This document shows positions 4,052 through 51,939 of a stretch of DNA of 64,000 nucleotides, in pieces. Below the pieces are notes generated by a model. The model was not told the origin of the DNA and did not search any database. It saw only the letters and a list, made by a program, of their open reading frames with translations. The stretch comes from Chitinophagales bacterium (GTDB lineage: Bacteria > Bacteroidota > Bacteroidia > Chitinophagales > UBA10324), in contig JACDDS010000002.1 of the NCBI GenBank assembly GCA_013816805.1, positions 73,530 through 137,529 of the forward strand, given 5' to 3'. Within the stretch, counting starts at the first letter, position 1. Every line of letters begins with the position of its first letter. Made by a program: the position numbers and the translations under genes.

Positions 4052-4063
4052 TCCAATTCCTCA

Positions 4064-4086
4064 GCAGTGTCAGTTTTTGACACTGC
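4064..4086 (+). other. intercistronic stem-loop between the two FG-GAP paralogs
   Basis: Perfect 8-bp inverted repeat GCAGTGTC (4064-4071) / GACACTGC (4079-4086) with a 7-nt loop. It lies 13 nt after the stop of the first paralog and 20 nt before the start of the second. No T-run follows it, so it is not a canonical terminator. Confidence 0.35.
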
Positions 4087-4105
4087 CTTATAAAAAATAA
4101 AAAAC

Positions 4106-30560: not shown

Positions 30561-30627
30561 CGGCCAAATTTAGAAATTCCTGACAGCACTACTATTCGCT
30601 TCTTAAACTTTTAGTGAAATAGTCAAT

Positions 30628-30658
30628 CCCGCATTTGATTTTAAACCTGCAATGCGGG
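30628..30658 (-). terminator. stem-loop closing the permease array
   Basis: 8-bp inverted repeat CCCGCATT (30628-30635) / AATGCGGG (30651-30658), 43 nt downstream of the last permease stop. The T-rich run lies on the plus-strand side only, so terminator function on the minus strand is uncertain. Confidence 0.4.
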
Positions 30659-30700
30659 TTTCTATAGTGATATTTTTTATATTAGGTGTATGTTCGCAAC

Positions 30701-33175
30701 TCATTCCATCCTCAAACTCTTCACCGGGTTCATTACTGCTGCCTTTACTGATTGAAAGCTCACAGTCAATAATGCAATTATCAGCGCTACCAATCCCGCT
30801 GCAACAAACACCCATGGGCTTATGTCGATGCGGTACGCAAAATCTGAAAGCCATTTATTCATTGCCCACCACGCCATGGGAAATGCAATAATCACCGCGA
30901 CCAGTACCAGCTTCGCAAAATCTTTTGACAGCAATGCTACAAGATTGGATGCTGTGGCGCCCAGCACTTTCCGGATTCCAATTTCCTTAGTGCGCCGCTC
31001 AGCCGTGTACGCTGATAGGCCGAACAATCCGAGACATGCAATGAACAAGGAAAGGAATGTAAAGAGCCCAAACACAGAACCCATTCTTTGTTCCGAACGA
31101 TATAATTCCTGGTATTCGCCGTCTAAGAATGTATAAGTAAACGGCGTATCATGAGAGAAATCAGACCATTTGCTCTTCAACGTCCTTAACGTTTTCTCCA
31201 TATCTCCGGGACGAACTCTTACCAGCGTATAGGAGGTGGAAAGCTCATAGGTCTTTGATGAAGCGTGGAACAACGCAAATGGAATCATCGAATAACGGAT
31301 GGATTGAACATTGAAATCCTTTACCACCCCAATCACTTTAAATCGCTGATCGTTATGGCCCGGGTACGTCATGAATTTTCCGACCGGCTTTTTCCAGCCA
31401 ATTTCCTTCGCAGCTTCTTCATTAAGAATTACAGATGCGGAATCTGAAAAATCGTGGGAGAAATTTCTTCCTTCCAATACTTTGATCTGAAGTGCGGGAA
31501 TGAAATTGTCATCAGCCATAAATGAAGTGAGCGTGAGATCTTTCACCTTAGGTTCGTCATTCGTGGTTGCTTCCGGCACATATCCATCACCAAAGAGATC
31601 CTTAGTAGGAATGCTCGTAGAAATGCTTGCACTCACTACCTGAGGAAGCCTGGTGAGCTCCTCGCGGAATGTCTCTTCCTTATTTCCGAGGCGGTTTGTT
31701 TTTGAGATCACAATTACATTTTCCTTATTCAACCCCAGGTTTTTGTTTTGAGTATATTGAAGCTGTTTAAACACTACTATCGTGCAAATGATCAGCACAG
31801 TCGATATCGTGAACTGAAGGATCACCAGTCCATTCCGGATAAATTGATTTCCGCTATTCGATTGTGATGCCTGTACATTTTTCAGAACAGCTGCTGTTTT
31901 AAACCGTGTGAGATAAAAAGCCGGGTAGCTCCCCGCCATTAACCCTGTGATGATGGAGAGTACGATCACGAGAAGCCAAATACCATTCGTAAAAAACAAT
32001 GAGAGGTCAAGTGATTTCCCTGCAAGCTGATCAAAGGGTTTTAGAAGCACAGTAATCAGCAACAGGGCAATGAGAGTTGATATGAAACTGTATATCATTG
32101 CTTCCGTCAAAAACTGTCTGATCAACTGAGCCTTGATAGAGCCCAGAACTTTTCTCATACCTACTTCCTTCGCGCGCTTCGCGGACTGCGCGGTAGAAAG
32201 GTTCATGAAATTGACGCAGGCAAGGATGATAATGAACAATGCGATGATGGAAAAAATGTAGACATATTTGATATCGCCAAGTGTTGTGAGCCGCCCTTGA
32301 ATATCGGTTGAATAGAGGTGCACTTTTGTGATTGGTTGCAGCTGAAAATTCCACTTTCCCCCTTTCTTATAGAGCTCATCGAGCGGCTGACCAATACGCT
32401 TGAATGCATTAGCAGCCTGCACCTTCACCATTGCAGGAAATGCTGCTACCAGCCGGGAAATGCTACGCTGGTCATTTGGAAAGTTGTTTTGCATCCGAAC
32501 ATATGTTGCAACCTGCAGCCATACCCAGCTCCAGCTAAATTCTTTTATTACCGGATATGCAGCAATGGGTGTTAAAAAATCAAATTGCAAGGATGATTGT
32601 GAAGGAACATCTTTAACAATTCCTGTTACATAAAATGGTTTTCGATCATCATCGAGCAACAGTGTTTGACCCATAGAAGGCTGACTGCCAAAATATTTCT
32701 TCGCCATGCTCCCGGTAATCACAATTGAGTTAGGGTTTTTCAAACAGGTTGCTGGATCACCTTCCATTAACGGATAAGGAAAAACTCTCAAGAAAGCAGA
32801 ATCAACAGCAATGATTCCTTCCTCATCAAAATAGTTTTCTGAATGGCTTCCGTCATAACGGACCACTGTATTGCCCGGGCGATAAATTCGGGTATATGAT
32901 TCTATTTCGGGGAAAGTAGCAGCCAGCGCGGGCCCTACTGTAGGAGGTGAATTGGAAGTTAAGAATTCATTACCGCCAAAATCTCCATCGAGGTTTACCT
33001 GGTAAATACGGGCTGCATCTTTAAGGAAGCGATCATAATTGAGTTCATCCAATACATAAAAAGAGATGAAGATCACACAAGCCATTCCAATCGCAAGTCC
33101 TGCAATGTTGATGATGCTATACACTCTATTGCGAGTGATGTTTCGCCAGGAGATCTTGAAATAATTCCTGATCAT
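30701..33175 (-). CDS. duplicated-FtsX (MacB-type) ABC transporter permease, paralog P7
   Basis: 824 aa. It has the N-terminal family signature (MIRNYFKISWRN + TM1) and a large periplasmic domain. There are two FtsX cores (RAKEVGMRKVLGS and RTKEIGIRKVLGA), each followed by TM helices. The C-terminus ends NPVKSLRME. Confidence 0.9.
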   Translation of the reverse strand: MIRNYFKISWRNITRNRVYSIINIAGLAIGMACVIFISFYVLDELNYDRFLKDAARIYQVNLDGDFGGNEFLTSNSPPTVGPALAATFPEIESYTRIYRPGNTVVRYDGSHSENYFDEEGIIAVDSAFLRVFPYPLMEGDPATCLKNPNSIVITGSMAKKYFGSQPSMGQTLLLDDDRKPFYVTGIVKDVPSQSSLQFDFLTPIAAYPVIKEFSWSWVWLQVATYVRMQNNFPNDQRSISRLVAAFPAMVKVQAANAFKRIGQPLDELYKKGGKWNFQLQPITKVHLYSTDIQGRLTTLGDIKYVYIFSIIALFIIILACVNFMNLSTAQSAKRAKEVGMRKVLGSIKAQLIRQFLTEAMIYSFISTLIALLLITVLLKPFDQLAGKSLDLSLFFTNGIWLLVIVLSIITGLMAGSYPAFYLTRFKTAAVLKNVQASQSNSGNQFIRNGLVILQFTISTVLIICTIVVFKQLQYTQNKNLGLNKENVIVISKTNRLGNKEETFREELTRLPQVVSASISTSIPTKDLFGDGYVPEATTNDEPKVKDLTLTSFMADDNFIPALQIKVLEGRNFSHDFSDSASVILNEEAAKEIGWKKPVGKFMTYPGHNDQRFKVIGVVKDFNVQSIRYSMIPFALFHASSKTYELSTSYTLVRVRPGDMEKTLRTLKSKWSDFSHDTPFTYTFLDGEYQELYRSEQRMGSVFGLFTFLSLFIACLGLFGLSAYTAERRTKEIGIRKVLGATASNLVALLSKDFAKLVLVAVIIAFPMAWWAMNKWLSDFAYRIDISPWVFVAAGLVALIIALLTVSFQSVKAAVMNPVKSLRME

Positions 33176-33208
33176 TTTTGAGATGTTTGTACTTAACTCC
33201 GTATTCGC

Positions 33209-33304
33209 ATGCCAGAAAAAAGCTTTCTGATATACAAATGGTTAGTCTCATAAAGAAAAAATGGTTGTGCGGTTTTGATATAGAAAGTGTGCGAAAATGA
33301 TATT
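33209..33304 (-). promoter_or_regulatory. conserved upstream module, copy A (in front of P7)
   Basis: Read on the plus strand: ATGCCAGAA at 33209-33217, with the palindrome CAGAAA-N5-TTTCTG. Direct repeats TGTGCGGTTTTGATATA (33267-33283) and TGTGCGAAAATGATATT (33288-33304) follow. The order and the ~58-bp offset match copies B and C. Confidence 0.5.
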
Positions 33305-33338
33305 GCTGAGCCCATCTTCCGTAACTGTTTACAATTCG

Positions 33339-35723
33339 TTACTCTGCTCTTAAGCTCTTCGCGGGATTTGCTATTGCTGCTCTCATGGTATGGAAGATCA
33401 CGGTAAGTAACGTAATAATCAAAACTATCAGTGCGGAAAGCAAAAAAGGCGCGGCCGACAGGCCGGTATTGTAGGGAAATATTTTAAGCCATTGATTCAT
33501 GAAATACCATGCCACCGGAAAAGCTATGATACAGGACAGTCCTACAAGAAATATGAAGTTTTTTATAATCAGCGGCACAATTTCACGAAGGCCGGCTCCC
33601 ATAATTTTTCGAATGCCGATTTCTTTTTGGCGTTGCTGTGTAGTGAATGCGATTAAGCCCAAAAGTCCCAGGCAGGTAATGAGAATGGTAAGAATTGAAA
33701 ACGCAATAAATATTTTTCCGCGCTTCTGATCGGCTGCATATTGTGAGTCAAAATCCTGGTCGAGAAAAACATATTGGAAAAGAAGCTCCGGAAAAATCGT
33801 TTTCCATGTCTTCTCTAAAGAGGTAAGAGTGGCCGGAATATTTGTGGGACTTATCTTCACAAGAATGTTGTTACTGTTCGGCCGGTAAAAAAGTATGAGT
33901 GGCTCGAGCGGATTGTACAGCGACTTTTGATTGTAATCCTTCACAACCCCAATTACTTCAAAATATCTCCCTGAAGTATCGCCGGATGATTTTACAATCT
34001 TTCCCAACGGCTCATCCCACCCAAAATATTTTACAAGGTTTTCATTGACGATAATGCTTCTAAGCGTATCCGAAGGTCCGGAAAAATTTCTTCCTTTAAC
34101 CAATTTAATATCCAGTACCGGAAAGAAATTTTCATCCACCCCATAGCAGGAAATTCCTTTATCTACGCTACCATTGCGGGAATCGAGAGAGAACAAATTG
34201 AAGTTAATATTTCCATTTCCAGGACGGCTTTCTGAAGCACTTACGGTTAGCACCTGTGAATTTTCGTGCAACACATTTTTAAACGCCAGCACCTTGCTTC
34301 GCAGATCTCCATTGCCATCCACATTCAAGGAAACCACCTCTTCTTTATTAAAACCCAAATCCTTGCTTCGCACATATTGCAATTGCCTGTAGACTACAAA
34401 CGTGCATACAATCATGATCATGGAAATGGAAAACTGAACAACAATCAGTGCTCTTCGCAGACTAACATTACTCGAGCCTTTTGAGAGACTTCCCTTCAGT
34501 ACAAAAACAGGATTGAATTTGGAGAGATAAAAAGCAGGATACATTCCTCCTGCAAGTCCTACAAATAAAATAATGGTTGCGAGGATAGAAACGGACTCAG
34601 GCTGAAAAAGTATATGAAAGGAAATAGATTTTCCGGCAAGAGAATCAAAGGTGGGGAGCAATAACAGTACGAACACAATGCTTAGCAGCAATCCAATACA
34701 TGCCGATAATAATGATTCAATGAGGAATTGCGCGATCAGCTGTGACTTGGTCGATCCGGTAACTTTACGAATACCAATTTCTTTGGCTCTTCGCGCAGAA
34801 CGGGCGGCTGAAATATTCATGTAGTTAATGGAGGCAATAATGAGCATGAAGATCGCAACTGCAAAAAAAATATAGATGTAGGACATGCTCCCGATTTCTT
34901 CGGGCTCATTCGTCATATCAGAATGGAGATGTATATCAGTAATCGGCTGAACACCGTAATGGATCTTAATATTGAACTGATCAAAAATTGCCGCCATGTA
35001 TTTACCATACATCGGCATAAGCTTTTTTTCAAATGCAGCTTTATCCGTATTGGGCTTCAATAAAACATAGGTATAAATATTGAAGTTTCCCCAGCCGCCA
35101 CCATCATAGTCTTTAGGTAAGGAATTAGCCGAAATTAATGCACTAAAAATTAAGTGTGAGTTTGCAGGAACATCTTTAATCACAGCAGTTACTTTATAAA
35201 CATCACCGCTGTTGCTGCGCAATGAATTTCCTACCGCGTTGGTCCTTCCAAAATATTTTTCTGCGGACGTTTCAGTGAGCACCATGGAATTAGGTTCTTT
35301 CAGTGCTGTTTCAGAATTACCTTCAATAAAATTCCAGGTAAAAACTTTAAAAACATTGCTGTCAGTATAATAAGTTTTGTCTTCATAAAAATGAAGATCG
35401 CCGTTCTTAAACATGGTGCGTCCATTAGCAAAAAACCGTACGGCCTCTTCCACTTCAGGATAATCTCTTTTTAAAGCCGGTGCCATTACATATTGAGTAA
35501 TGGCAAGTTTCATACTGTTTGATGGTTCGTCTATATAGGAATTGATTCGCACAATGCGATCCGCTTTTTTATGATAACGATCAAAGCTTAATTCATCCCT
35601 TATGTAAAAGATCATAAACAAGCTGCAGGTAATGCCAATCGCCAATCCCAATATGTTGAGCATGGTATACCACAAGTCTTTTTTAAGATTCCTGATGGCG
35701 ACAAGCCAAAGATTTCTAATCAT
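33339..35723 (-). CDS. duplicated-FtsX (MacB-type) ABC transporter permease, paralog P6
   Basis: 794 aa. N-terminus MIRNLWLVAIRNL, FtsX cores RAKEIGIRKVTGS and RQKEIGIRKIMGA, C-terminus NPAKSLRAE. Confidence 0.9.
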   Translation of the reverse strand: MIRNLWLVAIRNLKKDLWYTMLNILGLAIGITCSLFMIFYIRDELSFDRYHKKADRIVRINSYIDEPSNSMKLAITQYVMAPALKRDYPEVEEAVRFFANGRTMFKNGDLHFYEDKTYYTDSNVFKVFTWNFIEGNSETALKEPNSMVLTETSAEKYFGRTNAVGNSLRSNSGDVYKVTAVIKDVPANSHLIFSALISANSLPKDYDGGGWGNFNIYTYVLLKPNTDKAAFEKKLMPMYGKYMAAIFDQFNIKIHYGVQPITDIHLHSDMTNEPEEIGSMSYIYIFFAVAIFMLIIASINYMNISAARSARRAKEIGIRKVTGSTKSQLIAQFLIESLLSACIGLLLSIVFVLLLLPTFDSLAGKSISFHILFQPESVSILATIILFVGLAGGMYPAFYLSKFNPVFVLKGSLSKGSSNVSLRRALIVVQFSISMIMIVCTFVVYRQLQYVRSKDLGFNKEEVVSLNVDGNGDLRSKVLAFKNVLHENSQVLTVSASESRPGNGNINFNLFSLDSRNGSVDKGISCYGVDENFFPVLDIKLVKGRNFSGPSDTLRSIIVNENLVKYFGWDEPLGKIVKSSGDTSGRYFEVIGVVKDYNQKSLYNPLEPLILFYRPNSNNILVKISPTNIPATLTSLEKTWKTIFPELLFQYVFLDQDFDSQYAADQKRGKIFIAFSILTILITCLGLLGLIAFTTQQRQKEIGIRKIMGAGLREIVPLIIKNFIFLVGLSCIIAFPVAWYFMNQWLKIFPYNTGLSAAPFLLSALIVLIITLLTVIFHTMRAAIANPAKSLRAE

Positions 35724-35778
35724 GTATGAGCGAATTACTAACGTTATTATTTCAGCTTCACTGAATATTATTCTATTA

Positions 35779-38226
35779 TTACTCTGTTCTTAAACTCGTT
35801 ACCGGGTTGGTGATGGCTGCTTTCACTGCCTGGAACCCGACTGTCAGCAACGCCATGGCCACAGCAATAAAAGCTGATATTATAAAGATCCACCAGCTTA
35901 CGTTAACACGGTATGCAAAATCCTGCAGCCATTTATCCATTCCAAGCCATGCAACGGGGAACGCTACCAGCACGGCGATAATAACCAGCTTCAAAAAATC
36001 TTTTGAAAGAAGTGTAATGATATTGCTCACGCTGGCACCCAGTACTCTCCGTATACCAATTTCGCGGGCACGTTTCTGGGCTGCATAGGTAACCAATCCA
36101 AGCAATCCAATAAAGGCGATAAAAATGGCAAGCATTGAAAATATTTTAAATAGCTTTTCCATGGTTTGTTCCGAATGATAAAGGCTGGCCAATTGCTGAT
36201 CCAGAAACTTATATTGAAATGGATGCCCCGGAACATAACTGTTCCAGTCCTTTTCTATAGTCCCAAGCACATTTCTAATTTGCGAAGATTGAATGCGCAC
36301 TGCTGTTAACGGCAATACATTTTTAAACTTTGCACCATTCATAAAAATAAGCGGCGTGATTTTCTGATGCAGTGATTGAAAATTAAAATCTTTTACAATA
36401 CCAATTACAGTAAGTACCTGCGTAGTACCATCCGGTAAATTAAAAAAGCCATCAGGACTTATTAGCCTTGCCCCAATAGGATCAGCTATTCCTAACTCCG
36501 CCAATGCTTTTTCATTTAACAGGATTGACAATGAATCTGTGGCGAGATCTCTTGAAAAAAAACGCCCTTTTACAACCGGAATATCAAGCGTAGATAACAG
36601 CTGATCATCTGAAAGTATGCCTCTGCCCGTGAGCGTTTCTTTACTTCCTAAAAGCTGAAAAGAAGCACCAAAAAAGTTTTGATCCCCTGGAAGTGCTGAC
36701 GTACCTGAAACGTTTTCAATCCCCGGAATTTTACGCAGGTCGTTTATAAACGATTGACTTTGCTTTCCGAGCAGATCTGTCCGCTGCAATTCAACAATGT
36801 TATCTTTTCTAAAACCTAACTGATCGCTCAGCATATATTGCATCTGCCTGTCTACAGTAAGAGTAGATATAATCAGCATTACAGATATTGCAAATTGAAA
36901 AATTACCAAACCATTCCGGACCAATCGACCTTTGGGGTTAAAGCTAAACTTACCTTTCAGCACTATAATCGGCTTAAATGAAGAAAGCACAAATGCAGGA
37001 TATAAGCCTGCAAGAACTCCAATAAATATTACTGATAGAATTAAAAACGTGAACTGCAACGGCTGAAAGAAATACAATGCAGATAGGTGCAAATTAAAGA
37101 GACCATTAAAAAAAGGAAGTATGACGAAGATTAAAATTATTGCGATTACCAGACTCAATACGCTTGTTATAACTGATTCAAATAAAAACTGACGAATCAA
37201 TGCACTCTGCTCGCTTCCAAAAGTTTTCCGGATTCCTACTTCCTTTGCACGGTCAAGAGAGCGCGCAGTCGAGAGATTTATAAAATTGATACAAGCCAGC
37301 AACAGGATAAAAAAAGCAATTACGCTAAAGGCATATACAATATTGATACTTCCGTTTGGGCTTAACTCCGCTTCAAGATTTGAGGTAAGGTGAATTTTCG
37401 TTAAGGGTTGCAGATAATAATGATAGCCATTTCCGGCAGACTGAAATTCCTTAAAAGAAACCCCGAAATTTTTTTCAATATCCCCGGATACGTATTTTTC
37501 TATGATAAGAGGGAATTTTCTCTCAAGGGCTTTGGCATCAGCATTGGCATTCAGCAAAAGATAGTTGTAGCAGGAAAAGCTGACGTAGTCCGGCTTTTGA
37601 ACGCCATTCCCGAAAGAAGACAAGGACGCAATAACATCAAATGTAAAATGTGAATTTGGTGGTAAGTCTTTGCTCACTGCTGTGACTACAGCGGCAGAAT
37701 CATCAACCGTTATTGTTTTTCCAAGTGCATTGGCTGCTGATCCAAAATATTTCTTTGCTGTGCTTTCGTTTACTACCAGGCTGTTCGGTAAGGTAAGCGC
37801 CTTGCTGGCATTGCCAAGCAGAAGAGGTACGGTAAATACATCAAAGAAATTTGAATCGGCAAACAGAACGTTCTTTTCATTAAATACTTTATCATCTACA
37901 CGTAAAAACAAACCCTGGTCCTGCTGACCCTGAAAAAGTCTAACACTTTGCTCTATTTCGGGAAACTCTTTCTTCATGGCATCACCTATAGAATAGGGAA
38001 TTATGGCGTACGAAGTAGATCGGCCAGGATAACGGCGGTCAAGAACAACCCTGTAAATGCGATCGCCCTTTTTATGAAAATTATCAAAGTTCAATTCACT
38101 GTTGACAAAAAGAATAATGATCATGCATACACTAATACCGATAGCAAGGCCAATCAGGTTAAGCACGGTATAACCCTTTTGCCGCAACATGTTACGCAGT
38201 GCCACTTTAGAATAATTTTTGAGCAT
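35779..38226 (-). CDS. duplicated-FtsX (MacB-type) ABC transporter permease, paralog P5
   Basis: 815 aa. N-terminus MLKNYSKVALRNM, FtsX cores RAKEVGIRKTFGS and RAREIGIRRVLGA, C-terminus NPVTSLRTE. Confidence 0.9.
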   Translation of the reverse strand: MLKNYSKVALRNMLRQKGYTVLNLIGLAIGISVCMIIILFVNSELNFDNFHKKGDRIYRVVLDRRYPGRSTSYAIIPYSIGDAMKKEFPEIEQSVRLFQGQQDQGLFLRVDDKVFNEKNVLFADSNFFDVFTVPLLLGNASKALTLPNSLVVNESTAKKYFGSAANALGKTITVDDSAAVVTAVSKDLPPNSHFTFDVIASLSSFGNGVQKPDYVSFSCYNYLLLNANADAKALERKFPLIIEKYVSGDIEKNFGVSFKEFQSAGNGYHYYLQPLTKIHLTSNLEAELSPNGSINIVYAFSVIAFFILLLACINFINLSTARSLDRAKEVGIRKTFGSEQSALIRQFLFESVITSVLSLVIAIILIFVILPFFNGLFNLHLSALYFFQPLQFTFLILSVIFIGVLAGLYPAFVLSSFKPIIVLKGKFSFNPKGRLVRNGLVIFQFAISVMLIISTLTVDRQMQYMLSDQLGFRKDNIVELQRTDLLGKQSQSFINDLRKIPGIENVSGTSALPGDQNFFGASFQLLGSKETLTGRGILSDDQLLSTLDIPVVKGRFFSRDLATDSLSILLNEKALAELGIADPIGARLISPDGFFNLPDGTTQVLTVIGIVKDFNFQSLHQKITPLIFMNGAKFKNVLPLTAVRIQSSQIRNVLGTIEKDWNSYVPGHPFQYKFLDQQLASLYHSEQTMEKLFKIFSMLAIFIAFIGLLGLVTYAAQKRAREIGIRRVLGASVSNIITLLSKDFLKLVIIAVLVAFPVAWLGMDKWLQDFAYRVNVSWWIFIISAFIAVAMALLTVGFQAVKAAITNPVTSLRTE

Positions 38227-38326
38227 AGATCAAGTTTTATCTACTATAGTCACTATAAAATTTCTTCTTTAGAAAGTCGTATCCCGTAGCTCATTATTGA
38301 AATTTATTTTTTTGATAATATTATAA

Positions 38327-39276
38327 TTACTCTGTTCTCAGGCTCTTTAACGGTTGATAAGTGCCACCCTTACCGTATGATAGCCGACCGTGCACGCTAC
38401 CAATGCAACCGTTACAAATGCTGCTAAAACAAACACATATCCCTGTACAGGGATTCGAAAAGCAAAATCCTGCAGCCATTTATTTCCTGACCACCGCAAC
38501 CGCCAGTCATTTATCGAAAACAAAAATGGACGAGCGGCTGCTGAAGTATCTTTGCTTTGAATGAAATTCTTGAGCTTATCATTCAATAAATCTCGATCTG
38601 CTTTCGGTTGCAGCTCTGCAAATGTTTGAACTCCGTTTGATTTCCAATCTTTCAGCCAGGCATTCTTTTCCTCAAAATTCTCAAACGGCATCAGCCAATC
38701 ATAAGAGTAGGTTGTGTTGTACGGAAAATCTTTAAACACTCCGGTGATCTTATATTCATCTGCGTTATTCACCTTCAATGTTTTACCAATGGGGTTTTCA
38801 TTGTCAAAAAATTTCCTCGACATTGTTTCAGAAATTACCAGTGAGTACACATCATCAAAAGCAGTACGGGAGTTTCCATAAATAAACTGCATTGAAAAAA
38901 TTTTAAAGATCTGCGAGTCTGCTTCATTTCCATTTTCAAATATTTCTTTCTCGCCCAATGAAAAGAGGGACCGGCTCCCCCAGTTAGTTCGTGCAGCTCG
39001 TTTAATACCAGGAATTTCTGACTGTGCCACAGCAGCAAATGGCCCTGGCATAGAAGCAAATGTGTATGTTTTTCCATCGTATGTTTGATTCTCAAGCAAC
39101 TGATAGATATTATCGCGGTTTTGAATGGAAGTATCGAACATTATTTCATTTTCAACCCACAGCATTATAAGTGCCGCACAGGTTATCCCAATTCCTAGTC
39201 CCACGATGTTTAAAAATCCAAATGTTTTATTCTTCCATAGGTTTCTCAAAGCCGTTATTAAATAATTTTTAATCAT
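38327..39276 (-). pseudogene. remnant of a duplicated-FtsX permease (internal ~1.5-kb deletion plus terminal frameshift)
   Basis: The family start (MIKNYLITALRNLWKNK) is the ATG at 39276; the longer ORF to 39324 uses a TTG. TM1 and most of the first periplasmic domain are intact. The frame then jumps straight into the family's last ~55 aa (NKWLQDFAFRI + final TM). The ORF stops at ALINR*, but shifting one base restores the family ending (N)PLKSLRTE* with its stop at 38327-38329. Confidence 0.8.
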
Positions 39277-39364
39277 AGCAGAAAGGAATTTGGCTTCTCG
39301 TAAGAGTTTGTGGTAATCTTTCAAGCTTGAAAGATTTATTTGTTGAAGTGTTTAAACACTATTA

Positions 39365-39477
39365 TGTTACAGCTTTGGATAAATAAATCTTTGAATTCTT
39401 ATGCCAATAATTCTAAGATGGCAGTTTTCAATGTCAGGCTTAAGAAAAGTTTTTTTACGGATTGCTCATGACTTATG
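39365..39477 (-). promoter_or_regulatory. decayed copy (D) of the upstream module, in front of the permease remnant
   Basis: TGTTACAGC box at 39365. The box ATGCCAATA (39401-39409) replaces ATGCCAGAA and the palindrome is lost. TTTTCAATG (39425-39433) is retained as in copy C. A 10/17 match to the first direct repeat (GGATTGCTCATGACTTA, 39459-39475) sits at the expected +58 offset. The second repeat is absent. Confidence 0.35.
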
Positions 39478-39490
39478 CCTAAACCTGTTA

Positions 39491-41827: not shown

Positions 41828-41900
41828 CTTAATGTTTAAGGTGTGAGTTAATGTTGATTACCTCTCATTATTTAATTGTCGAAGTATTAATTCACTCTTT

Positions 41901-42047
41901 TGTTACAGCGCAGATCAATTAAATTACCTCTAAACATTGATCACATCAACATGCCAGAAAGAAGCATTCCTGATTTACAATTAGTTAGTATTTTATAAGG
42001 AAAAAAGGTGTTCGCTTATGATACATTTGCTGTTCGAAAATGATAGG
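41901..42047 (-). promoter_or_regulatory. conserved upstream module, copy B (in front of P4)
   Basis: Read on the plus strand: TGTTACAGCGCAGA..AATTAA box at 41901. ATGCCAGAA at 41951-41959 with CAGAA-N8-TCCTG. Direct repeats TGTTCGCTTATGATACA (42009-42025) and TGTTCGAAAATGATAGG (42031-42047), starting 22 bp apart. Confidence 0.55.
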
Positions 42048-42083
42048 TGTGGTTCACCGGATTTAATGCAGATGGCCGTGCCT

Positions 42084-44501: not shown

Positions 44502-44582
44502 AGGAAAAATGTTTCCAGTTTCTGTTTAGGTTGGCGTCCTCATTAATTTTAATCCTGATCCATTCCGGATTTTTTTTTCTGA

Positions 44583-47009
44583 TTATTCGGTTCGTAAATT
44601 TTTTACCGGATTGGAAATTGCCGCTCGAATTGATTGTATACTGATTGTTGCAAAGGCAATGAATGATGCAAGAAGAGCGGCCACAGGAAAAATCCACCAG
44701 CTAATTTCCGTCCGATATGCAAATCCTTTCAGCCATTCGTTCATAGCATACCATCCGATAGGAAACGAGATTAATGCGGCAACGATCACCAGCTTTAAGA
44801 AATCGTAGGATAACATTCGCACAATACAACTCACGCTTGCGCCCAGTACTTTTCTTATTCCAATCTCTTTAAACCGCTGAAGAATTGTAAAGGATGACAA
44901 GCCAAGTAACCCCAAACATGCAATCAGAATAGCGATGATAGAAAACAGTGTGAACAGATGTTCCTGTTTCCGTTCCGCATCATACAGCCTGCTGAAATTA
45001 TTATCCAGAAAGGTATAATCAAATGCAAAGCCAGGTAAAAACTGATTCCATGCCTCTCTTAAATCATTTAACCCTGCATGGGTGTTATTTGCCGAAAGCT
45101 TAACTGAAAGACTGCCATAGTATTTTTTAATAACTGGTGTTCCCATGATCAGGATTACCGGAACAATCGGCTGATGCATCGATTCAAAATGAAAATCTTT
45201 CATAACACCAACCACCTTACCCTCAACATTCCCGTACTTAAATGCTTTTCCAATTGCATTTTTTGGGTTTTGCCAGCCAAGCATTTTTATTGCCGCCTCG
45301 TTTAAGATATAATTGTCTGTATCTTTTGGATATTCTGGTGAGAAATTTCTTCCGGCTACCATCTTAATACCATAGGTGGGTATAAATCCATAGTCTACTG
45401 CTACATATTTTATTGCTGCAGAAACAGGTACAGTTGAATCCGCGGAGATGGTTTGTGCACCCATATCATCAAGCAGCCGACCCGTTGGAATGCGTGAGGA
45501 ACGTGTAGCATCTTTGATAGTAGCATGCCGGAGCAATTCACTCTTGAATGCTTCAAAGGAGGGATCCAGAGCATAATTGTAGGTCATGGTCACCACCTGA
45601 TCCTTATCGAATCCCGGAGCGGTTTTCATTACATAATTCAGCTGGCGAAATACTATTGCAGTTGAAATAATAAGTATAATGGAGATGGTGAATTGAACGA
45701 CTACCAAAACCTTTCTAAATGAAATACTTCCCGTTCCGGGCTTAAAAATTCCTTTCAATGCAATTATAGGCTGGAAGGATGAAAGGTAGAGCGCAGGATA
45801 AATCCCTGCAAGAACTCCGACAATAAATGGAGTAATAAATAGAACGATCATTAGCCACCATCTCAATAAACCTGGTAGTGATAGCTGCCCGGTAACCTGG
45901 TTTAAAACGGGAAGTACCAGAATAGTCATTAGCAAAGCACATAACATCGCCGTCCAGCTCAATAAAACAGATTCGAAAAGGAACTGGGTAATTAAATTTC
46001 CGCGTTGAGCGCCAATCACCTTCCGGACACCAATCTCCCGCGAGCGAAGCGCCGATCTGGCAGTGGAAAGATTCATATAATTAATGCATGCAATCAGTAA
46101 TATGAAAAGACTGATTGCAGCGAAAATATACACGATAGTGATGTCACCATTCTGCTCTGCCTCATCATCCAAATGCGACCGCAGGTGTATATCCGTAAGC
46201 TTCTGAAGACTAAGCGCCGTATATTTCGACTGTTTTAATTCAGGGTGCATTTTGCTTTTCATGTGCCTGTCAATAAATGCCGGGAACTGGTTTGCTATTT
46301 TTTCTGCAGGATAATTTTCAGGCAACTTGATGTAGGTGAAAAATGAATTGTTACCATAATTGGTAAGCAGGTTATTTATTCCATAAATAGAAGAATCCTC
46401 GAGCGTAGGAAATGAAATGAGAATTTCAGGATGGATGTGGGCAGCTGCCGGAAAAGGCTGATAAATACCAGTTACTTTCAGATCATTCGTATTGTTAAGG
46501 CGCATCACCTTATTCATAGGGTCTTCACTTCCGAAATATTTTCTGGCTTCGTCCGGAGTAAGCATTACGCAAAATGGATCGTTTAATGCTGTTTCGGGAT
46601 CACCCTGCAAAACATTTACAGTGAAAATGTGAAACAAACTCCTATCAGCATACCAGGAACCCGGTTCATTAAAAATCTTTTCTTTATAGCGAAATGGTGT
46701 AGGGCCATTTGGAAGCAAACGAGTATAGTCTTCAATATCTGGAAAATCATTTTTCAGAAGTGGTCCGAAGGGAGGAGCAACGGAACTTAAATTCAGCTCC
46801 TGAATACCTTCGCTGTTATTGAAGCTCCTCGTAACACGGTATATCTGGCCTGCATTTTTATTATAGCGATCGAAACTTAGTTCATTAAGTATAAATGCCA
46901 GGATCAGCAAACAGCAGGTAAGGCCTACCGTTAATCCAAAAAGATTTATAAAGGAAGTGAACTTGTATTTTAATAGATTCCTGATTGCAATTTTAAAATA
47001 GTTGCTCAT
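44583..47009 (-). CDS. duplicated-FtsX (MacB-type) ABC transporter permease, paralog P2
   Basis: 808 aa. N-terminus MSNYFKIAIRNL, FtsX cores RSREIGVRKVIGA and RFKEIGIRKVLGA, C-terminus NPVKNLRTE. Confidence 0.9.
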   Translation of the reverse strand: MSNYFKIAIRNLLKYKFTSFINLFGLTVGLTCCLLILAFILNELSFDRYNKNAGQIYRVTRSFNNSEGIQELNLSSVAPPFGPLLKNDFPDIEDYTRLLPNGPTPFRYKEKIFNEPGSWYADRSLFHIFTVNVLQGDPETALNDPFCVMLTPDEARKYFGSEDPMNKVMRLNNTNDLKVTGIYQPFPAAAHIHPEILISFPTLEDSSIYGINNLLTNYGNNSFFTYIKLPENYPAEKIANQFPAFIDRHMKSKMHPELKQSKYTALSLQKLTDIHLRSHLDDEAEQNGDITIVYIFAAISLFILLIACINYMNLSTARSALRSREIGVRKVIGAQRGNLITQFLFESVLLSWTAMLCALLMTILVLPVLNQVTGQLSLPGLLRWWLMIVLFITPFIVGVLAGIYPALYLSSFQPIIALKGIFKPGTGSISFRKVLVVVQFTISIILIISTAIVFRQLNYVMKTAPGFDKDQVVTMTYNYALDPSFEAFKSELLRHATIKDATRSSRIPTGRLLDDMGAQTISADSTVPVSAAIKYVAVDYGFIPTYGIKMVAGRNFSPEYPKDTDNYILNEAAIKMLGWQNPKNAIGKAFKYGNVEGKVVGVMKDFHFESMHQPIVPVILIMGTPVIKKYYGSLSVKLSANNTHAGLNDLREAWNQFLPGFAFDYTFLDNNFSRLYDAERKQEHLFTLFSIIAILIACLGLLGLSSFTILQRFKEIGIRKVLGASVSCIVRMLSYDFLKLVIVAALISFPIGWYAMNEWLKGFAYRTEISWWIFPVAALLASFIAFATISIQSIRAAISNPVKNLRTE

Positions 47010-47201
47010 GGAAAAAGTGCCAGGTTAGTTTTTAGATTTCTGTAATTAGATTTCAGTAATCAGGTGTTTCAAGTTTGAAGTCTGAAAGTTTAAGGTTTGA
47101 TGCTGAAGTGTGTTTTATTTTGAATTTGTTTATCAGTATCCATTCAACATTATTTTATACTGAACTCAACCTGATGGCTGATACCTGAGAGCTCATTCTC
47201 T

Positions 47202-49625
47202 TCATTCTATCCTCAGTGATTTAACGGGGTTAATAAATGCCAATCTTAATATTTGTACGATCACGGTAAGCACAGCAATAGAAATAGAAAGCAACCCTGC
47301 AAGGATAAAAGTCCACCAGCTGATATTAATGCGGAAAACAAAATTTTGAAGCCAGCTATTCATCAGATACCAACCCATGGGGATTGCAATTATCAGCGCC
47401 ACAATAACCAGGACTAAAAAATATTTAAGAAACAAAGCACTGATATTTGCTATCGATGCACCAAGTACTTTTCGTATCCCAACTTCTTTAGTTCTGTTTG
47501 CTATAAAGAATGAAACCAGACCAAACAGACCAAGGCATGAAATAAAAATGGCGAGGGCAGCAACTACTTTATACAGCTTGGCAAGCTTTTCATCCTGCAG
47601 GTAAAATTGTGCAATGTTCTCATCGAGAAAAGTATTCCCGAAGAAATATTCAGGATAAATCCTATCCCATATTTTATTTACTGCTGTAATCGTTTCACTT
47701 ATAGTTCCGGGTAAAATCTTTATTCCGGCAATTCCATAATAATCTTTTTTGCAGGAGATGTAAGTAGGTTTTACGGTTTCATGCAAAGAATTCGTTTTAA
47801 AATCCTTTACAACACCAACTACTGGTTTCCACTTTCCTCTTCCAGTCCGGATCATTTTTCCGATAGCATCCTGAGGATTTGAAACTCCTAATTTTTTCAT
47901 CAGTGTCTTATTGATCACCACTTCTTTTGAGGTGTCTGATTGTTCATATCCTTGTCCTGCCAGAAACTTTAATCCGTATGTCCGGAAAAAATCTGCGTCT
48001 GCAAACTTGAGGTAAACATTAAAATCTTCATCTTTTGGCCGATGATCAAAAGAAAAATTTGTACTCCAGTCATTTTCAGAAGTGGGGGCATCACTGCTGA
48101 TGCTAACATTAGTAACAGATGAAAGCTGCTGCACCTCATTCTTAAAATCGCTGAAGCGGGCAATAGCAGTGGTATCACTGTATAAAGGAACCTGCATAAT
48201 CACATTGGGATTTAAGCCAAGGTCTGCCTGATGAATGTATTGCAGCAGACCTGCAGTAATAATGGTTGCGATTATGAGCACCTGTGAAATCAGAAATTGA
48301 AAAACCACCAATCCTGCCCGCAGACTTACACCTGTCTTAGTTCTGTTGGGGATTTTATTCTTAAGTGCCTGAATCGGCTGAAAACCGGAAAGTACTAATG
48401 CAGGGTATGTACCCGCTAACACAGTTACAGCTAAAATGATTATTGCAATCCATATCCAGACATTACTACTGAAAAGAATGGATACGTTATCCGGCAGGTT
48501 TGTAAGGTCTTTCACAAAAGGAAAAGCGGCAACTGCAATTGCGATTCCAATCACTGATGATGCAGTAACAATTAAAAATGTCTCTCCGGCAAATTGTTTT
48601 ACCAAATCAAACCTGCTGCTGCCGAGCACTTTGCGTACACCTACTTCCCTGGAACGCCGGGTAGCAAGTGCAGTAGCGAGATTAATGAAGTTAATACACG
48701 CCATCAGAACGACGAAAAGGGCAATCAGGATCACTCCGTTTAGAGTTGTTTTGCTCACCGTCCTTACATCGGAACCGTAATCCTGGTTGAAGTGAACATC
48801 GCTCAATGGCTGAAGCGAATTTAGCATCTGCTCATTGGTATTACTGCGGTAATGTTTTTTTGAAAACGAAGGAAGCAATCTATCAATAGATGCGGCTGAC
48901 ATGTTTGGAGGTAATAAAACATAAGCGTTGAAATTGCTGCTTATATTCCCCCAATCGCTTAGTTGATTGTATGAAGCGGAATCGTTGGTACGAAAAGTTA
49001 TAAACGACATTGCTATTTTTAACGGAATGCTGCTGTTATCAGGAGAGTCATTCATGATTCCATTCACCTGAAGCGTAAATGAATGGTTCACCTTAATAGA
49101 TTGTCCGATTGCCTTTTTCCAGTCACCAAAGAATTGCTCAGCAACGCTTTTACTTAGTGCAATGGAATTTGGTTCCGCCATCGCGGTAGCCGGATTCCCC
49201 GTGATCCAGGGAAAAGTGAATATTTTGAAAAAATCAGGCTGAATATAATAGATGCCATCGTCCTGCTTAAATTTTCTGACCTCCCCCGTTTCAGGATCGG
49301 TAACTGCAAAAAAGGAATTGAACTGGGAATAGGCAGTAGTTACATCTTTTAACTGGGGCATGTCAACCTGAAGTGCTTCTCCCAAAAGCAGTGGAACACC
49401 CGAGGTCTGAGCTTTTGTGCCATCCGAATAGCTCGTATTTGTTACTATCCGGTAGATTCGGCTTTTCTGCGAATTAAAGTGGTCGAAGCTTTTCTCAAAC
49501 TGCACATTAATAAAAATGATCAGCGCGCAGGCAACACTCAGTGCAAGTCCGGCAATATTGATGATCGTGAAGCTTCTGTTTCTTAGTAAATTTCGGAAGG
49601 CTGTTTTTAAATAATTTCTAATCAT
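47202..49625 (-). CDS. duplicated-FtsX (MacB-type) ABC transporter permease, paralog P1
   Basis: 807 aa. N-terminus MIRNYLKTAFRNL, FtsX cores RSREVGVRKVLGS and RTKEVGIRKVLGA, C-terminus NPVKSLRIE. Confidence 0.9.
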   Translation of the reverse strand: MIRNYLKTAFRNLLRNRSFTIINIAGLALSVACALIIFINVQFEKSFDHFNSQKSRIYRIVTNTSYSDGTKAQTSGVPLLLGEALQVDMPQLKDVTTAYSQFNSFFAVTDPETGEVRKFKQDDGIYYIQPDFFKIFTFPWITGNPATAMAEPNSIALSKSVAEQFFGDWKKAIGQSIKVNHSFTLQVNGIMNDSPDNSSIPLKIAMSFITFRTNDSASYNQLSDWGNISSNFNAYVLLPPNMSAASIDRLLPSFSKKHYRSNTNEQMLNSLQPLSDVHFNQDYGSDVRTVSKTTLNGVILIALFVVLMACINFINLATALATRRSREVGVRKVLGSSRFDLVKQFAGETFLIVTASSVIGIAIAVAAFPFVKDLTNLPDNVSILFSSNVWIWIAIIILAVTVLAGTYPALVLSGFQPIQALKNKIPNRTKTGVSLRAGLVVFQFLISQVLIIATIITAGLLQYIHQADLGLNPNVIMQVPLYSDTTAIARFSDFKNEVQQLSSVTNVSISSDAPTSENDWSTNFSFDHRPKDEDFNVYLKFADADFFRTYGLKFLAGQGYEQSDTSKEVVINKTLMKKLGVSNPQDAIGKMIRTGRGKWKPVVGVVKDFKTNSLHETVKPTYISCKKDYYGIAGIKILPGTISETITAVNKIWDRIYPEYFFGNTFLDENIAQFYLQDEKLAKLYKVVAALAIFISCLGLFGLVSFFIANRTKEVGIRKVLGASIANISALFLKYFLVLVIVALIIAIPMGWYLMNSWLQNFVFRINISWWTFILAGLLSISIAVLTVIVQILRLAFINPVKSLRIE

Positions 49626-49719
49626 GAGCTATCCGCTTTTCAGTTACAACTTTCAGTAATCAGCAGTCAGTCTTCAGTTATCAGCGTTCAGGTTTCTGAT
49701 TACAGAAGCTGATGGCTAT

Positions 49720-50397
49720 TCACGCCATAATATTTTCCATCACTGTTTGTCCATCGAGCATACGGATAATGCGATGGCTGTATCGGGCGTCATGCTCACT
49801 GTGGGTTACCATCACAATGGTGGTTCCCTGTTCATTTAAATCAGTAAGCAGCTGCATCACTTCGCTGCCATTGTGTGAATCAAGATTACCGGTAGGTTCA
49901 TCCGCGAGAATAAGCTTGGGGTTATTAACTACTGCCCGGGCCACAGCAACCCGTTGTTGCTGTCCGCCGGAAAGCTGTTGCGGATAGTGGTTGCGGCGGT
50001 GCATGATCTGCATCTTATCAAGCACCTCTTCTACACGTTTTTTTCGATCTGCACCTTTTACTCCGGTGTAAATCAGCGGAAGCTCGACATTCTCATATAC
50101 CGTAAGCTCATCAATCAGGTTAAAGCTTTGAAATACAAATCCAATGTTTCTTTTACGGAGATCCGCACGCTTGCGTTCGTTAAAGTGCGCAACCTCAGTT
50201 CCGTTAAAAAGAAAACTTCCGCTATCCGGATCATCAAGCAGTCCCACAATATTCAGAAGGGTGGATTTGCCACATCCTGAAGGGCCCATTACGGCAATAA
50301 ATTCTCCATCCTTCACTTCAAGTGAAAGCCTGTTAAGCGCGACAGTCTCTACTTCTTCTGTGCGGTAAATTTTTTCAAGTTCAGTGATCTTAAGCAT
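49720..50397 (-). CDS. ABC transporter ATP-binding protein (MacB/LolD-type NBD)
   Basis: 225 aa. Motifs present: Walker A GPSGCGKST, Q-loop FVFQSFNL, signature LSGGQQQRVAVARA, Walker B LILADEPTGNLD and H-loop VTHS. Confidence 0.95.
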   Translation of the reverse strand: MLKITELEKIYRTEEVETVALNRLSLEVKDGEFIAVMGPSGCGKSTLLNIVGLLDDPDSGSFLFNGTEVAHFNERKRADLRKRNIGFVFQSFNLIDELTVYENVELPLIYTGVKGADRKKRVEEVLDKMQIMHRRNHYPQQLSGGQQQRVAVARAVVNNPKLILADEPTGNLDSHNGSEVMQLLTDLNEQGTTIVMVTHSEHDARYSHRIIRMLDGQTVMENIMA

Positions 50398-50481
50398 TTA
50401 ATTAGTTTAGAGTTAGTGTTTTGGGTTTAGTGTTTGGGTTAGACAGTAATGAATCAACTCGAAACTCTAAACCGTAAATAT

Positions 50482-51735
50482 TTATTTTTTCAAAACCAAT
50501 TCGTCCATAGTTCCATAATTCTCATAACTGGACGTAACCACCTTGTCCCCGGGCTTCAGCCCCTGTAATACTTCGTAATAATCCGGATTTTGCCTGCCAA
50601 TCTGAATATCCGTTTTATAAGCTGTAGCTCCGGACGCATTTACTTTGAAAATCCAGTTGCCTCCAGTCTGCTGAAAAAATCCTCCCTTAGGTAACAGCAA
50701 TGCCTGGGTTTCATCACTTAATGCCAAACGAATCTGTAAAGTTTGTCCCCTCCGGATGCCCTGGGGTACTTCATTTACAAATTCCATATCCACCTGGAAG
50801 CGACCATTGTTTACCTGTGTAAATATTTTTTTTATCTTAAGCTGGTATGTTTTGTTTGCAAATGTGAAGTCACCCATCAGCCCGGTAAAAATTCTGGAGA
50901 TGTAGTGTTCATCCACATCTACACGTACTTTATATCCGCTTAGCACATCAATTTGCCCAAGCCGGTCTCCGTTATTTTTCGACTCACCAATTTCTGCATC
51001 GAGTGAAGTGAGCTGGCCATCAACCGGGGCACGTACAATCAGATCACCTACTTTCCTTTGCATAAGAGAAAGGGCGTTTTGCATATGTGCATAAGACTCA
51101 TGCATTTGCCGGAGCTGCTGTTTGGTGGAAATTGAATCACTTGCAAGTGTCCGCCCTGCAAGTTTCCTACGGCTTATCTGGTAATCATAATTATTTTTTG
51201 CAGATTGGAATTCCTGCAAGCCGATCGCTCCTTGTTTATACAGTGTACTGTCGACAAAGAAAATGCGCTGTGCTTCTTCAAAAGCATTTTCTACATCCGC
51301 CATTTGGTTGAGCTCACGAATGGTGTTTTGATCTGAAAGATTTTTTGTGTTTTGCATTTGAGTCAAAACATCAAATACTGCAGTTTGCCGGTTGGCAAGA
51401 TCCAGCTCGAGATCCGTGTTCACCAACTTAAGTATGGGGTCGTTTTTTTTCAGCACAGCTCCATCTTCAACATATTTTTCTTCTACTCTTCCGCCTTCGG
51501 TGGCATCCAGGTAAATGGTGGTGATAGGAAGTACCACACCATTTACTGGAATGAATTCCTGGAAAGATCCATTCTTCACTTCACTAATAGTGATTCGCTC
51601 TGTATCTACGTTTAACCGGCTTTTTCCTGTGGTGAAATAATAACTGGCGATGATCAGCAGTGCCATGCCTGCAATACCAGCATAGGTAAGGATTCGTTTC
51701 GTAGTCCACCTTTTTTTTGGAATTACTCTGTCCAA
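50482..51735 (-). CDS. HlyD/MacA-family periplasmic adaptor (membrane fusion protein)
   Basis: 417 aa with an N-terminal TM anchor (ILTYAGIAGMALLIIASYYF). It has a lipoyl-like half (VEEKYVEDGAVLKKNDPILKL), a long helical hairpin region, and beta-barrel/MPD regions (VRAPVDGQLTSL). The ORF opens with a TTG codon at 51735; there is no in-frame ATG before the TM helix. Confidence 0.85.
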   Translation of the reverse strand: MDRVIPKKRWTTKRILTYAGIAGMALLIIASYYFTTGKSRLNVDTERITISEVKNGSFQEFIPVNGVVLPITTIYLDATEGGRVEEKYVEDGAVLKKNDPILKLVNTDLELDLANRQTAVFDVLTQMQNTKNLSDQNTIRELNQMADVENAFEEAQRIFFVDSTLYKQGAIGLQEFQSAKNNYDYQISRRKLAGRTLASDSISTKQQLRQMHESYAHMQNALSLMQRKVGDLIVRAPVDGQLTSLDAEIGESKNNGDRLGQIDVLSGYKVRVDVDEHYISRIFTGLMGDFTFANKTYQLKIKKIFTQVNNGRFQVDMEFVNEVPQGIRRGQTLQIRLALSDETQALLLPKGGFFQQTGGNWIFKVNASGATAYKTDIQIGRQNPDYYEVLQGLKPGDKVVTSSYENYGTMDELVLKK

Positions 51736-51791: not shown

Positions 51792-51939
51792 TGTTACATG
51801 TGCAGAAGAATTAATTTTTATGCCGGCGTTATGATAGGAATATGCCAGAACAGGTATTTTCTGATTTTCAATGCATTAATGAAATAAGAACAATCAAACC
51901 TTGTTCGCTTTTGATACAATCTATGTTCGCTTTTGTGTG
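51792..51939 (-). promoter_or_regulatory. conserved upstream module, copy C (in front of the adaptor gene)
   Basis: Read on the plus strand: TGTTACATGTGCAGA..AATTAA box at 51792. ATGCCAGAA at 51842-51850 with CAGAA-N8-TTCTG. Direct repeats TGTTCGCTTTTGATACA (51902-51918) and TGTTCGCTTTTGTGTG (51924-51939), starting 22 bp apart. Confidence 0.55.

Follow-up and report, generated by a model that had tools for sequence, protein, structure and literature searches.

A tandem array of long-diverged duplicated MacB/FtsX-type permeases headed by one adaptor and one ATPase gene in a Chitinophagales bacterium

Several described transporters share parts with the locus analyzed here, a tandem array of duplicated MacB/FtsX-type permease genes located at positions 30701–51735 (minus strand) of a 64-kb stretch of DNA from a Chitinophagales bacterium (GenBank assembly GCA_013816805.1, contig JACDDS010000002.1, positions 73,530 to 137,529; this whole stretch is referred to as the window). 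We favor, with moderate confidence, the reading that this locus encodes a type VII (MacB-fold) ATP-binding cassette (ABC) envelope exporter in which a common chassis serves interchangeable permeases. The closest partly characterized system is DarBCD, the darobactin exporter of Photorhabdus, which consists of the same three parts, namely a separate nucleotide-binding domain (NBD) protein of the MacB/LolD class, an adaptor, and a permease. DarBCD has been assigned as a trans-envelope exporter, and deletion of darB, darC, or darD lowers the darobactin titer 2–4 fold (PMC8442675). When compared with the DarBCD models, the window NBD scored 300 bits against DarD, the adaptor 169 bits against DarC, and the permeases 78–161 bits against DarB (positions 8–777 of 777), and the window proteins fell far short of the equivalog cut-offs of these models (DarB, 700; DarC, 450; DarD, 375 bits). 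The two systems also differ in that DarBCD has one permease whereas seven are present here, and in their regulation. Furthermore, no Pfam domain of a RiPP (ribosomally made, post-translationally modified peptide) precursor or of a radical-SAM maturase was found in the large open reading frames (ORFs) scanned, including those flanking the array; very small ORFs, the size class of a precursor peptide, and eight ORFs of 130–270 aa elsewhere in the window were left unscanned.

MacAB–TolC resembles this locus in the FtsX/MacB fold of its permease, in the periplasmic domain inserted between the first and second transmembrane (TM) helices, and in the presence of major and minor coupling helices; in addition, the adaptor encoded here is MacA-like, and an outer membrane factor (OMF) is encoded in related loci. 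In MacB, however, the NBD is fused to a homodimerizing permease with four TM helices, whereas the NBD here is encoded by a separate gene and the permease is an eight-TM fusion. Unlike MacAB–TolC, moreover, the locus offers many alternative permeases, and no OMF gene is located in the window. The periplasmic domains of MacB are the site of substrate handling by mechanotransmission. ADOP (TIGR03434, "Acidobacterial duplicated orphan permease") shares with the window permeases the duplicated MacB_PCD and FtsX domains, the protein length, and membership in a large paralogous family, and the description of this family refers to genes lacking adjacent ATPase genes. TIGR03434 was the best NCBIfam match for all seven intact permeases, but their scores (260–308 bits) were well under its cut-off of 622.3 bits. 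In contrast to the "orphan" trait, an adaptor gene and an NBD gene head the array here, and the arrays of relatives are bracketed by one ATPase gene, NBD1, and by a second one adjoining an OMF gene, NBD2–OMF. Bacteroidota copies are labeled ADOP by RAST, with 28–33 copies in Dyadobacter genomes (PMC11573002), and a 42-kb cluster of ten ADOP paralogs together with ATP-binding proteins was described in Psychroflexus torquis in 2014, the proteins being abundant in proteomes (PMC3914696). Finally, YbbAP–TesA of Escherichia coli and BceAB of Firmicutes are similar in combining a single-chain, pseudo-dimeric permease with a separate NBD. BceAB contains two copies of one NBD chain. The stoichiometry of YbbAP–TesA is 2:1:1, with two YbbA per YbbP (PMC12646458). 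The TM helices number 10 in both YbbP and BceB, and two linking helices connect the duplicated halves (PMC5985334; PMC12646458), as opposed to eight TM helices and a short linker in the model of a window permease described below. In addition, YbbAP and BceAB have neither an adaptor nor an OMF and are single permease genes, unlike the array in this window.

The gene content of the window was determined using an ORF listing, Pfam and NCBIfam scans, and tblastn searches with the NBD2, OMF, sigma54 regulator, and kinase of a relative. All members of the array are encoded on the minus strand. The first gene (50482..51735) encodes a periplasmic adaptor (membrane fusion protein) of 417 aa with HlyD_3 and HlyD_D23 domains (Pfam) and a single N-terminal TM helix (residues 15–34). 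Its best NCBIfam matches were the DarC-like model and RND_mfp, MacA structures were matched by sequence, and it is encoded together with a transporter, as is typical of MacAB–TolC-type systems. The second gene (49720..50397) encodes an ABC ATPase of 225 aa (ABC_tran in Pfam) belonging to the DarD/MacB/LolD/FtsE class, in which the Walker A and B, LSGGQ, D-loop (GNLDS), and H-loop motifs are intact. The permease genes start 94 nt further on with P1 (47202..49625; 807 aa) and continue with P2 (44583..47009; 808 aa), P3 (42084..44501; 805 aa), P4 (39491..41827; 778 aa), a decayed copy designated P5ps, P6 (35779..38226; 815 aa, assigned by Pfam, NCBIfam, and ortholog comparison), P7 (33339..35723; 794 aa), and P8 (30701..33175; 824 aa), the final member, which is followed by an unrelated BNR/Sortilin gene. 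Spacers of 55–256 nt separate the genes, and three of them carry a repeated regulatory cassette. This layout of seven intact permeases of 778–824 aa and one decayed copy agrees exactly, in coordinates and strand, with that given by a first-pass annotation made from the sequence alone. Its statement that the window holds no second NBD, second adaptor, or OMF was likewise confirmed, as tblastn over the 64 kb and the Pfam scans of large ORFs turned up a single NBD, a single adaptor, and no OMF.

Consistent with the duplicated architecture proposed earlier, Pfam assigned two MacB_PCD and two FtsX domains to each of the seven intact permeases. P1, which the database lists as belonging to a Chitinophagales metagenome-assembled genome, was aligned with 52 homologs from the database and the remaining six paralogs of the window (59 sequences), and this alignment was used as the input for AlphaFold2. 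The resulting P1 model (pLDDT 84, pTM 0.77) shows a fused pseudo-dimer in which the order TM–PCD–TM–TM–TM occurs twice, giving eight TM helices, with the halves joined by a low-confidence cytoplasmic linker of ~10 residues (425–433). In this model, the major coupling helices comprise residues 325–334 and 712–720, and the minor ones residues 417–421 and 800–806. A Foldseek search with the model returned YbbP as the best full-length match (E = 1.6e-19) and MacB at 2.6e-12; LolCDE (LolE), BceB, and HrtB were also matched, all at a probability of 1.00, and isolated MacB-type periplasmic domains were also retrieved. As modeled, the permease fold is that of type VII ABC (MacB/FtsX) transporters.

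P1 residues 320–336 align with the MacB coupling helix TERTREIGIRMAVGA and residues 414–422 with the MacB C-terminal helix, the roles of which have been described (PMC5985334). In the 59-sequence alignment, invariant residues cluster at the coupling helices (R324, E327, G329, R331, K332, and G335; E714, R718, and G722) and at the C-terminal helix (N799, P800, and L804). The first-pass annotation had reported a motif occurring twice per permease as an "FtsX core." This motif was recognizable in all seven proteins, but only P1, P2, P7, and P8 contain two exact matches to its pattern; P3 and P4 have one match each, and P6 has none. Moreover, the P1 model and the alignment to MacB place it at the major coupling helix, not in the membrane core. 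Loss of NBD-contact residues from most paralogs had been named as a result that would speak against a shared ATPase. No such loss was seen, both major and both minor coupling helices being kept in 7/7 intact paralogs.

Using P4 as the query, we searched species-representative genomes and obtained 80 related loci (designated by L and a number), in which all ORFs were classified and those left unclassified were examined with Pfam. The window paralogs are pairwise 31–39% identical overall, and this identity is distributed very unevenly. Mean paralog identity was 76% in major coupling helix 2, 67% in the C-terminal minor helix, and 61% in major coupling helix 1, followed by 48% in the N-terminal amphipathic helix, 29.9% and 26.5% in periplasmic domains 2 and 1, respectively, and 13% in the inter-half linker. 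Thus, NBD-facing segments (61–76%) are far better conserved than the periplasmic domains (26–30%), whose strong divergence had been noted before. Six of the seven paralogs, all except P1, have orthologs at 50–67% identity in other genera, including orthologs of P2 at 55–59% in L052, L054, L071, and L076, ten orthologs of P3 and 35 of P4 at ≥50%, and orthologs of P7 at up to 67%. The periplasmic domains are 45–60% identical between orthologs versus 27–29% between paralogs. At 45% identity, 350 full-length permeases from the 80 related loci fell into at least 67 clusters; each window paralog belongs to a cluster of its own, each with members in other genomes, and for permease pairs taken from the same locus the median identity is 34.7% (95th percentile, 41%). 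Because of the orthologs in other genera, the distinct clusters, and the low within-locus identity, these sequence comparisons mark the paralogs as ancient, separately maintained lineages and not as products of recent amplification, as the first-pass annotation had proposed in calling them old, maintained copies.

The 80 loci span Chitinophagaceae, Saprospiraceae, Mucilaginibacter, Dyadobacter, Emticicia, and Xanthocytophaga, and the permease family as a whole gave more than 7,500 matches at E ≤ 1e-20. The recurrent design of these loci consists of a divergent kinase and Sigma54_activat response regulator, the adaptor, NBD1, n permeases, NBD2, and an OMF of the OEP family. The adaptor–NBD1 pair is found at the array head in eight loci (L020, L030, L031, L046, L052, L053, L055, and L071), where it precedes 2 to more than six permeases. 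NBD2 closes 17 related arrays, with the OMF gene next in 16 of them (the sites include L031 17836–20216, L020 12452–14572, and L002 17472–19625, besides 14 other loci). Both ends are visible in four loci (L020, L031, L046, and L053), and these contain the full set, including both NBDs, with n = 2–4 permeases; n reaches at least nine in many related loci. Since two 22-kb, permease-filled loci, L043 and L050, are located only 10.5 kb apart (contig CAWAWY010000004.1, 483614–539479), tandem arrays of roughly 15–20 or more permeases exist, and the eight copies in the window are not extreme. Two non-permease insertions within related arrays were observed, a Toastrack/DUF4097 protein in L071 (12458–13510) and, in L052 (12596–13282), a protein of 229 aa for which Pfam gave no match.

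The two ATPases form separate clades, with identities of 82.7% within NBD1, 77.7% within NBD2, and 51% between the two. Both have complete catalytic motifs, and their D-loops differ by clade (GNLDS in NBD1 and GNLNS in NBD2). The window NBD belongs to NBD1, being 84–89% identical to the adaptor-adjacent NBD of six loci (from Chitinophagaceae-type metagenome-assembled genomes (MAGs), Niastella, and Mucilaginibacter) and 68% identical to the NBD1 of a Saprospiraceae MAG. The window array therefore has a normal head and an atypical tail, with the BNR/Sortilin gene after P8 where relatives have NBD2–OMF. Since OEP genes close 16 related arrays, the OMF partner of this array is likely encoded elsewhere in the genome. 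These comparisons affect the earlier proposal that one ATPase and one adaptor serve many permeases in two ways: an adaptor–NBD pair also heads multi-permease arrays in relatives, as a shared chassis predicts, but a single NBD is peculiar to this window, as the 17 arrays ending with NBD2 indicate.

Alignment of the regions upstream of the adaptor genes in the window and seven related loci revealed a repeated regulatory cassette, for which an nhmmer profile was built from nine copies. The profile replaced a loose regular expression, which was dropped because it gave many intragenic false matches. The cassette is a fixed-length module of ~119 nt that contains two 17-nt TGT-N11-ACA sites (consensus TGTATCAnAAnCGnACA) spaced 4 nt apart, an A-rich box (TAA...CTGAAAAnCA), and, 68–71 nt past the second site, a −24-like TGGCAT box that is invariant in 9/9 aligned copies. 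The profile search detected exactly three copies in the window, all intergenic and on the minus strand. The first (51829..51936; E = 4e-19) lies upstream of the adaptor gene and includes the sites ACACACAAAAGCGAACA and TGTATCAAAAGCGAACA, an A-rich box ending in TGAAAATCAG, and TGGCAT 71 nt past the second site. The second (41939..42049; E = 1e-21), with the exact site TGTATCATAAGCGAACA and the same parts and spacing, is located in the 256-nt spacer between P3 and P4, and the third (33197..33306; E = 1e-18) is located in the 163-nt spacer between P7 and P8. Copies were also found in loci outside the training set of the profile, always just upstream of a permease or NBD2 gene. Since the cassette recurs before the adaptor gene, P4, and P8, the array would consist of three transcription units (adaptor–NBD–P1–P2–P3, P4–P5ps–P6–P7, and P8) and not of one operon; the first-pass picture of one co-directional battery thus gives way to one of three putatively co-regulated units.

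In L031, L046, L052, and L055, divergent genes for a Sigma54_activat response regulator and a kinase adjoin the cassette, although none are present in the window. Together with the −24-like TGGCAT box, the activator genes beside the cassette in these four relatives suggest that the cassette is a sigma54-type promoter with activator sites. An in silico survey has found sigma54 promoters to be enriched upstream of COG0577 FtsX-like permeases in Bacteroidia (PMC12316311). The −24 GG element (TGGCA) is present in the cassette, but a −12 GC located 10 nt after the GG is not conserved. The canonical sigma54 pattern TGGCAC-N5-TTGC, searched with one mismatch, was no commoner than expected by chance. 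The regulator–kinase pair is located at 1791–4788 in L031 and likewise upstream of the adaptor gene in L046, L052, and L055. The L031 kinase has two TM helices and almost no periplasmic loop, and it resembles intramembrane-sensing kinases, which rely on a transporter for sensing.

If the locus combines a common chassis with interchangeable permeases, each permease would be a complete transmembrane unit on one chain, made of two directly fused MacB-like halves with eight TM helices and two periplasmic domains. By analogy with YbbA2–YbbP and BceA2–BceB, one permease may dock two NBD copies via the major and minor coupling helices of each half, and the variable periplasmic domains would set the choice of substrate or partner, so that different permeases would handle different substrates. 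The three cassettes would drive the three units. Since the cassettes are shared and, in relatives, adjoin a sigma54-type response regulator and kinase, one signal may induce the genes for the adaptor, ATPase, and every permease at the same time. The permeases may compete for the ATPase and make up a substrate library, as the first-pass annotation proposed. They would form alternative efflux pumps based on a common adaptor and ATPase(s) together with an OMF, with the NBD2, OMF, and regulators of this genome either encoded elsewhere or lost.

Several observations weigh against this proposal. Neither tblastn with the genes of a relative nor Pfam analysis of large ORFs detected an OMF, NBD2, sigma54 regulator, or kinase in the window, and a search of 10 kb past each window end revealed no NBD2, OMF, or regulators. 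The single NBD of the window may not suffice, given that canonical loci have two NBD clades. The coupling helices are conserved superfamily-wide and hence indicate a requirement for an NBD but not its identity. In addition, some related arrays (L037, L064, L070, and L079) start without a nearby adaptor or NBD, so that unlinked ATPases are conceivable. In the −12 region of the cassette, only a T is conserved (TATC, TGTG, TACG, TTAT, and others).

The second ATPase clade also leads to the main rival account, which we regard as possible but rather unlikely. According to it, NBD1 and NBD2 form a heterodimer that powers the fused, asymmetric permeases, or NBD2 serves some of the paralogs, and the window represents an incomplete set needing an unlinked NBD2–OMF; the picture of one ATPase serving every permease would then be wrong in detail. 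In favor of this account, NBD2 is a distinct, conserved clade with a D-loop of its own, it comes after the final permease in 17 related arrays, with the OMF next in 16, and both NBDs are present in 4/4 related loci whose two ends are visible. In L030, NBD2 directly adjoins NBD1, and the coupling helices differ consistently between the two halves of each permease, which also favors two ATPases. Furthermore, NBD2–OMF often carries its own cassette copy (L011, L024, L031, and L074) and can therefore be relocated within a genome. Conversely, the complete catalytic motifs of both NBDs argue against this account, and the Q-loop region is ~70% identical between the two clades, so that either NBD could bind either half. 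A single NBD chain is present in two copies in the fused type VII transporter BceAB, as mentioned above. The same holds for the solved YbbAP complex (PMC12646458), and the dar cluster encodes one NBD only, DarD (PMC8442675). Finally, some arrays lack NBD2 at their tail (L028, L067, L061, and L073).

The fold matches also raise the prospect, which appears improbable to us, that the permeases act as extractors or mechanotransmitters in the manner of LolCDE, YbbAP–TesA, or FtsEX–EnvC. Each periplasmic domain pair would then engage a different periplasmic partner or a different lipid or lipoprotein class, and just a subset of the permeases would make use of the adaptor and OMF. YbbP, the best full-length structural match, is an extractor of lipids or hydrophobic compounds (PMC12646458); LolCDE, HrtB, and BceB were also among the fold matches; and the superfamily is functionally diverse (PMC5985334). 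The existence of satellite arrays without an adaptor is likewise in line with such a role. However, the first gene of this array and of those in eight related loci encodes an adaptor, and 16 arrays are closed by an OMF gene, which is the signature of a trans-envelope pump. Moreover, the window array contains no interspersed candidate partner genes, such as ones for hydrolases or LolA-like proteins, and relatives show isolated insertions only, such as the Toastrack protein of L071.

The decayed copy P5ps (38327..39276, minus strand; the listed short ORF at this site spans 38347–39324) retains the first TM helix and first periplasmic domain (TM1 and PCD1) joined directly to TM8. It also has a 1-nt frameshift, one base having been lost (AAC CCG to AACCG) right ahead of VKSLRTE in the C-terminal helix. 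Because TM1–PCD1 and TM8 match different ortholog groups, with the C-terminal assignment covering 55 residues only, P5ps probably arose as a chimera when a deletion joined two earlier members of the array, and this past deletion suggests that the array once had at least nine genes. It is very improbable that such decay extends to most of the array, with one or two permeases working with the ATPase and the rest drifting as orphans, in which case no library logic would apply. Although P5ps has clearly decayed, fragmented permease ORFs are frequent in related MAG loci (many of which may be assembly errors), and the nearest NCBIfam family bears the name "duplicated orphan permease," the seven other ORFs are full length with all Pfam domains, and all but P1 have the above orthologs with conserved periplasmic domains. 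The NBD-facing helices being the best-conserved segments and the retention of cassettes by internal copies also argue against decay. Recent amplification or an assembly artifact, for which the tandem arrangement is the sole argument, can be dismissed with near certainty, given the 31–39% protein identity between paralogs, the presence of the same locus in independent assemblies (Logan SRR11719871 and NCBI GCA_020064125.1, contig JAITZQ011228983.1), and comparable arrays in 80 loci of other species.

Other features of the window were also recorded. The spacers between the adaptor, NBD, P1, and P2 genes (50398–50481, 49626–49719, and 47010–47201) are A/C-rich, lack Shine–Dalgarno-like sequences, and contain repeated short words, namely CTGA[AT] runs, TTAGTGTTTTGGGT (twice), and TTAGATTTCAGTAA (twice). 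A tandem-repeat search found short, trivial repeats in the leaders only, and an Rfam search over 27000–53000 found no RNA family. Scans for sigma70-type promoters and intrinsic terminators over the array gave counts no higher than in shuffled sequence and are uninformative for this phylum. In the spacer between P8 and the BNR/Sortilin gene (30561–30700), CCCGCATT...AATGCGGG form an inverted repeat of 8 bp, and a TAAATTTG box precedes the BNR/Sortilin start codon by 12 nt; this gene probably belongs to a unit of its own. An ORF of 194 aa that begins with TTG and runs antisense to P4 (40793–41377, plus strand) is most likely spurious. At 440–7729 (plus strand), tandem genes encode FG-GAP/ASPIC (UnbV) repeat proteins of 1203 and 1207 aa, and a third copy of 771 aa, divergently oriented, is located in the source contig (L082 7363–9678), immediately upstream of the window.

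The permease family and its tandem clusters have been noticed before (Psychroflexus torquis, PMC3914696; Dyadobacter, PMC11573002), and the window adds a further example of a variant of MacAB/DarBCD-type type VII exporters that is widespread and known from descriptions. The literature on these arrays consists of descriptive mentions; we found no experimental study of their function, the sharing logic, the two-NBD bracket, or the cassette, nor one of their control by a sigma54 two-component system. Among uncharacterized transporter expansions, that of the duplicated FtsX/MacB permeases ranks with the largest, with tens of copies per genome in soil and aquatic Bacteroidota and in Acidobacteria. 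The brackets of adaptor–NBD1 and NBD2–OMF, the conservation of the docking face, and the shared cassette make the "orphan permease" problem directly accessible to experiment in relatives that can be cultured, such as Niastella, Mucilaginibacter, Dyadobacter, and Chitinophaga. As a tentative wider view, the arrays might constitute a combinatorial envelope-defense or export repertoire. In such a repertoire, a fixed chassis (adaptor, NBD1, NBD2, and OMF) under one sigma54-type two-component system would be combined with dozens of ancient permease lineages acting as movable cassettes, each with its own copy of one enhancer/promoter module. Recombination between members would expand, shorten, and reshuffle the arrays, and P5ps would be one scar of it. 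If so, this would answer the question of who powers the "orphan" duplicated permeases and would represent a transporter organization without characterized precedent. If the permeases do share one chassis, as we favor for this locus, the arrays would represent a novel means of extending the range of substrates that an ABC pump handles, with a bearing on how these bacteria intrinsically resist antimicrobial peptides or other natural products.

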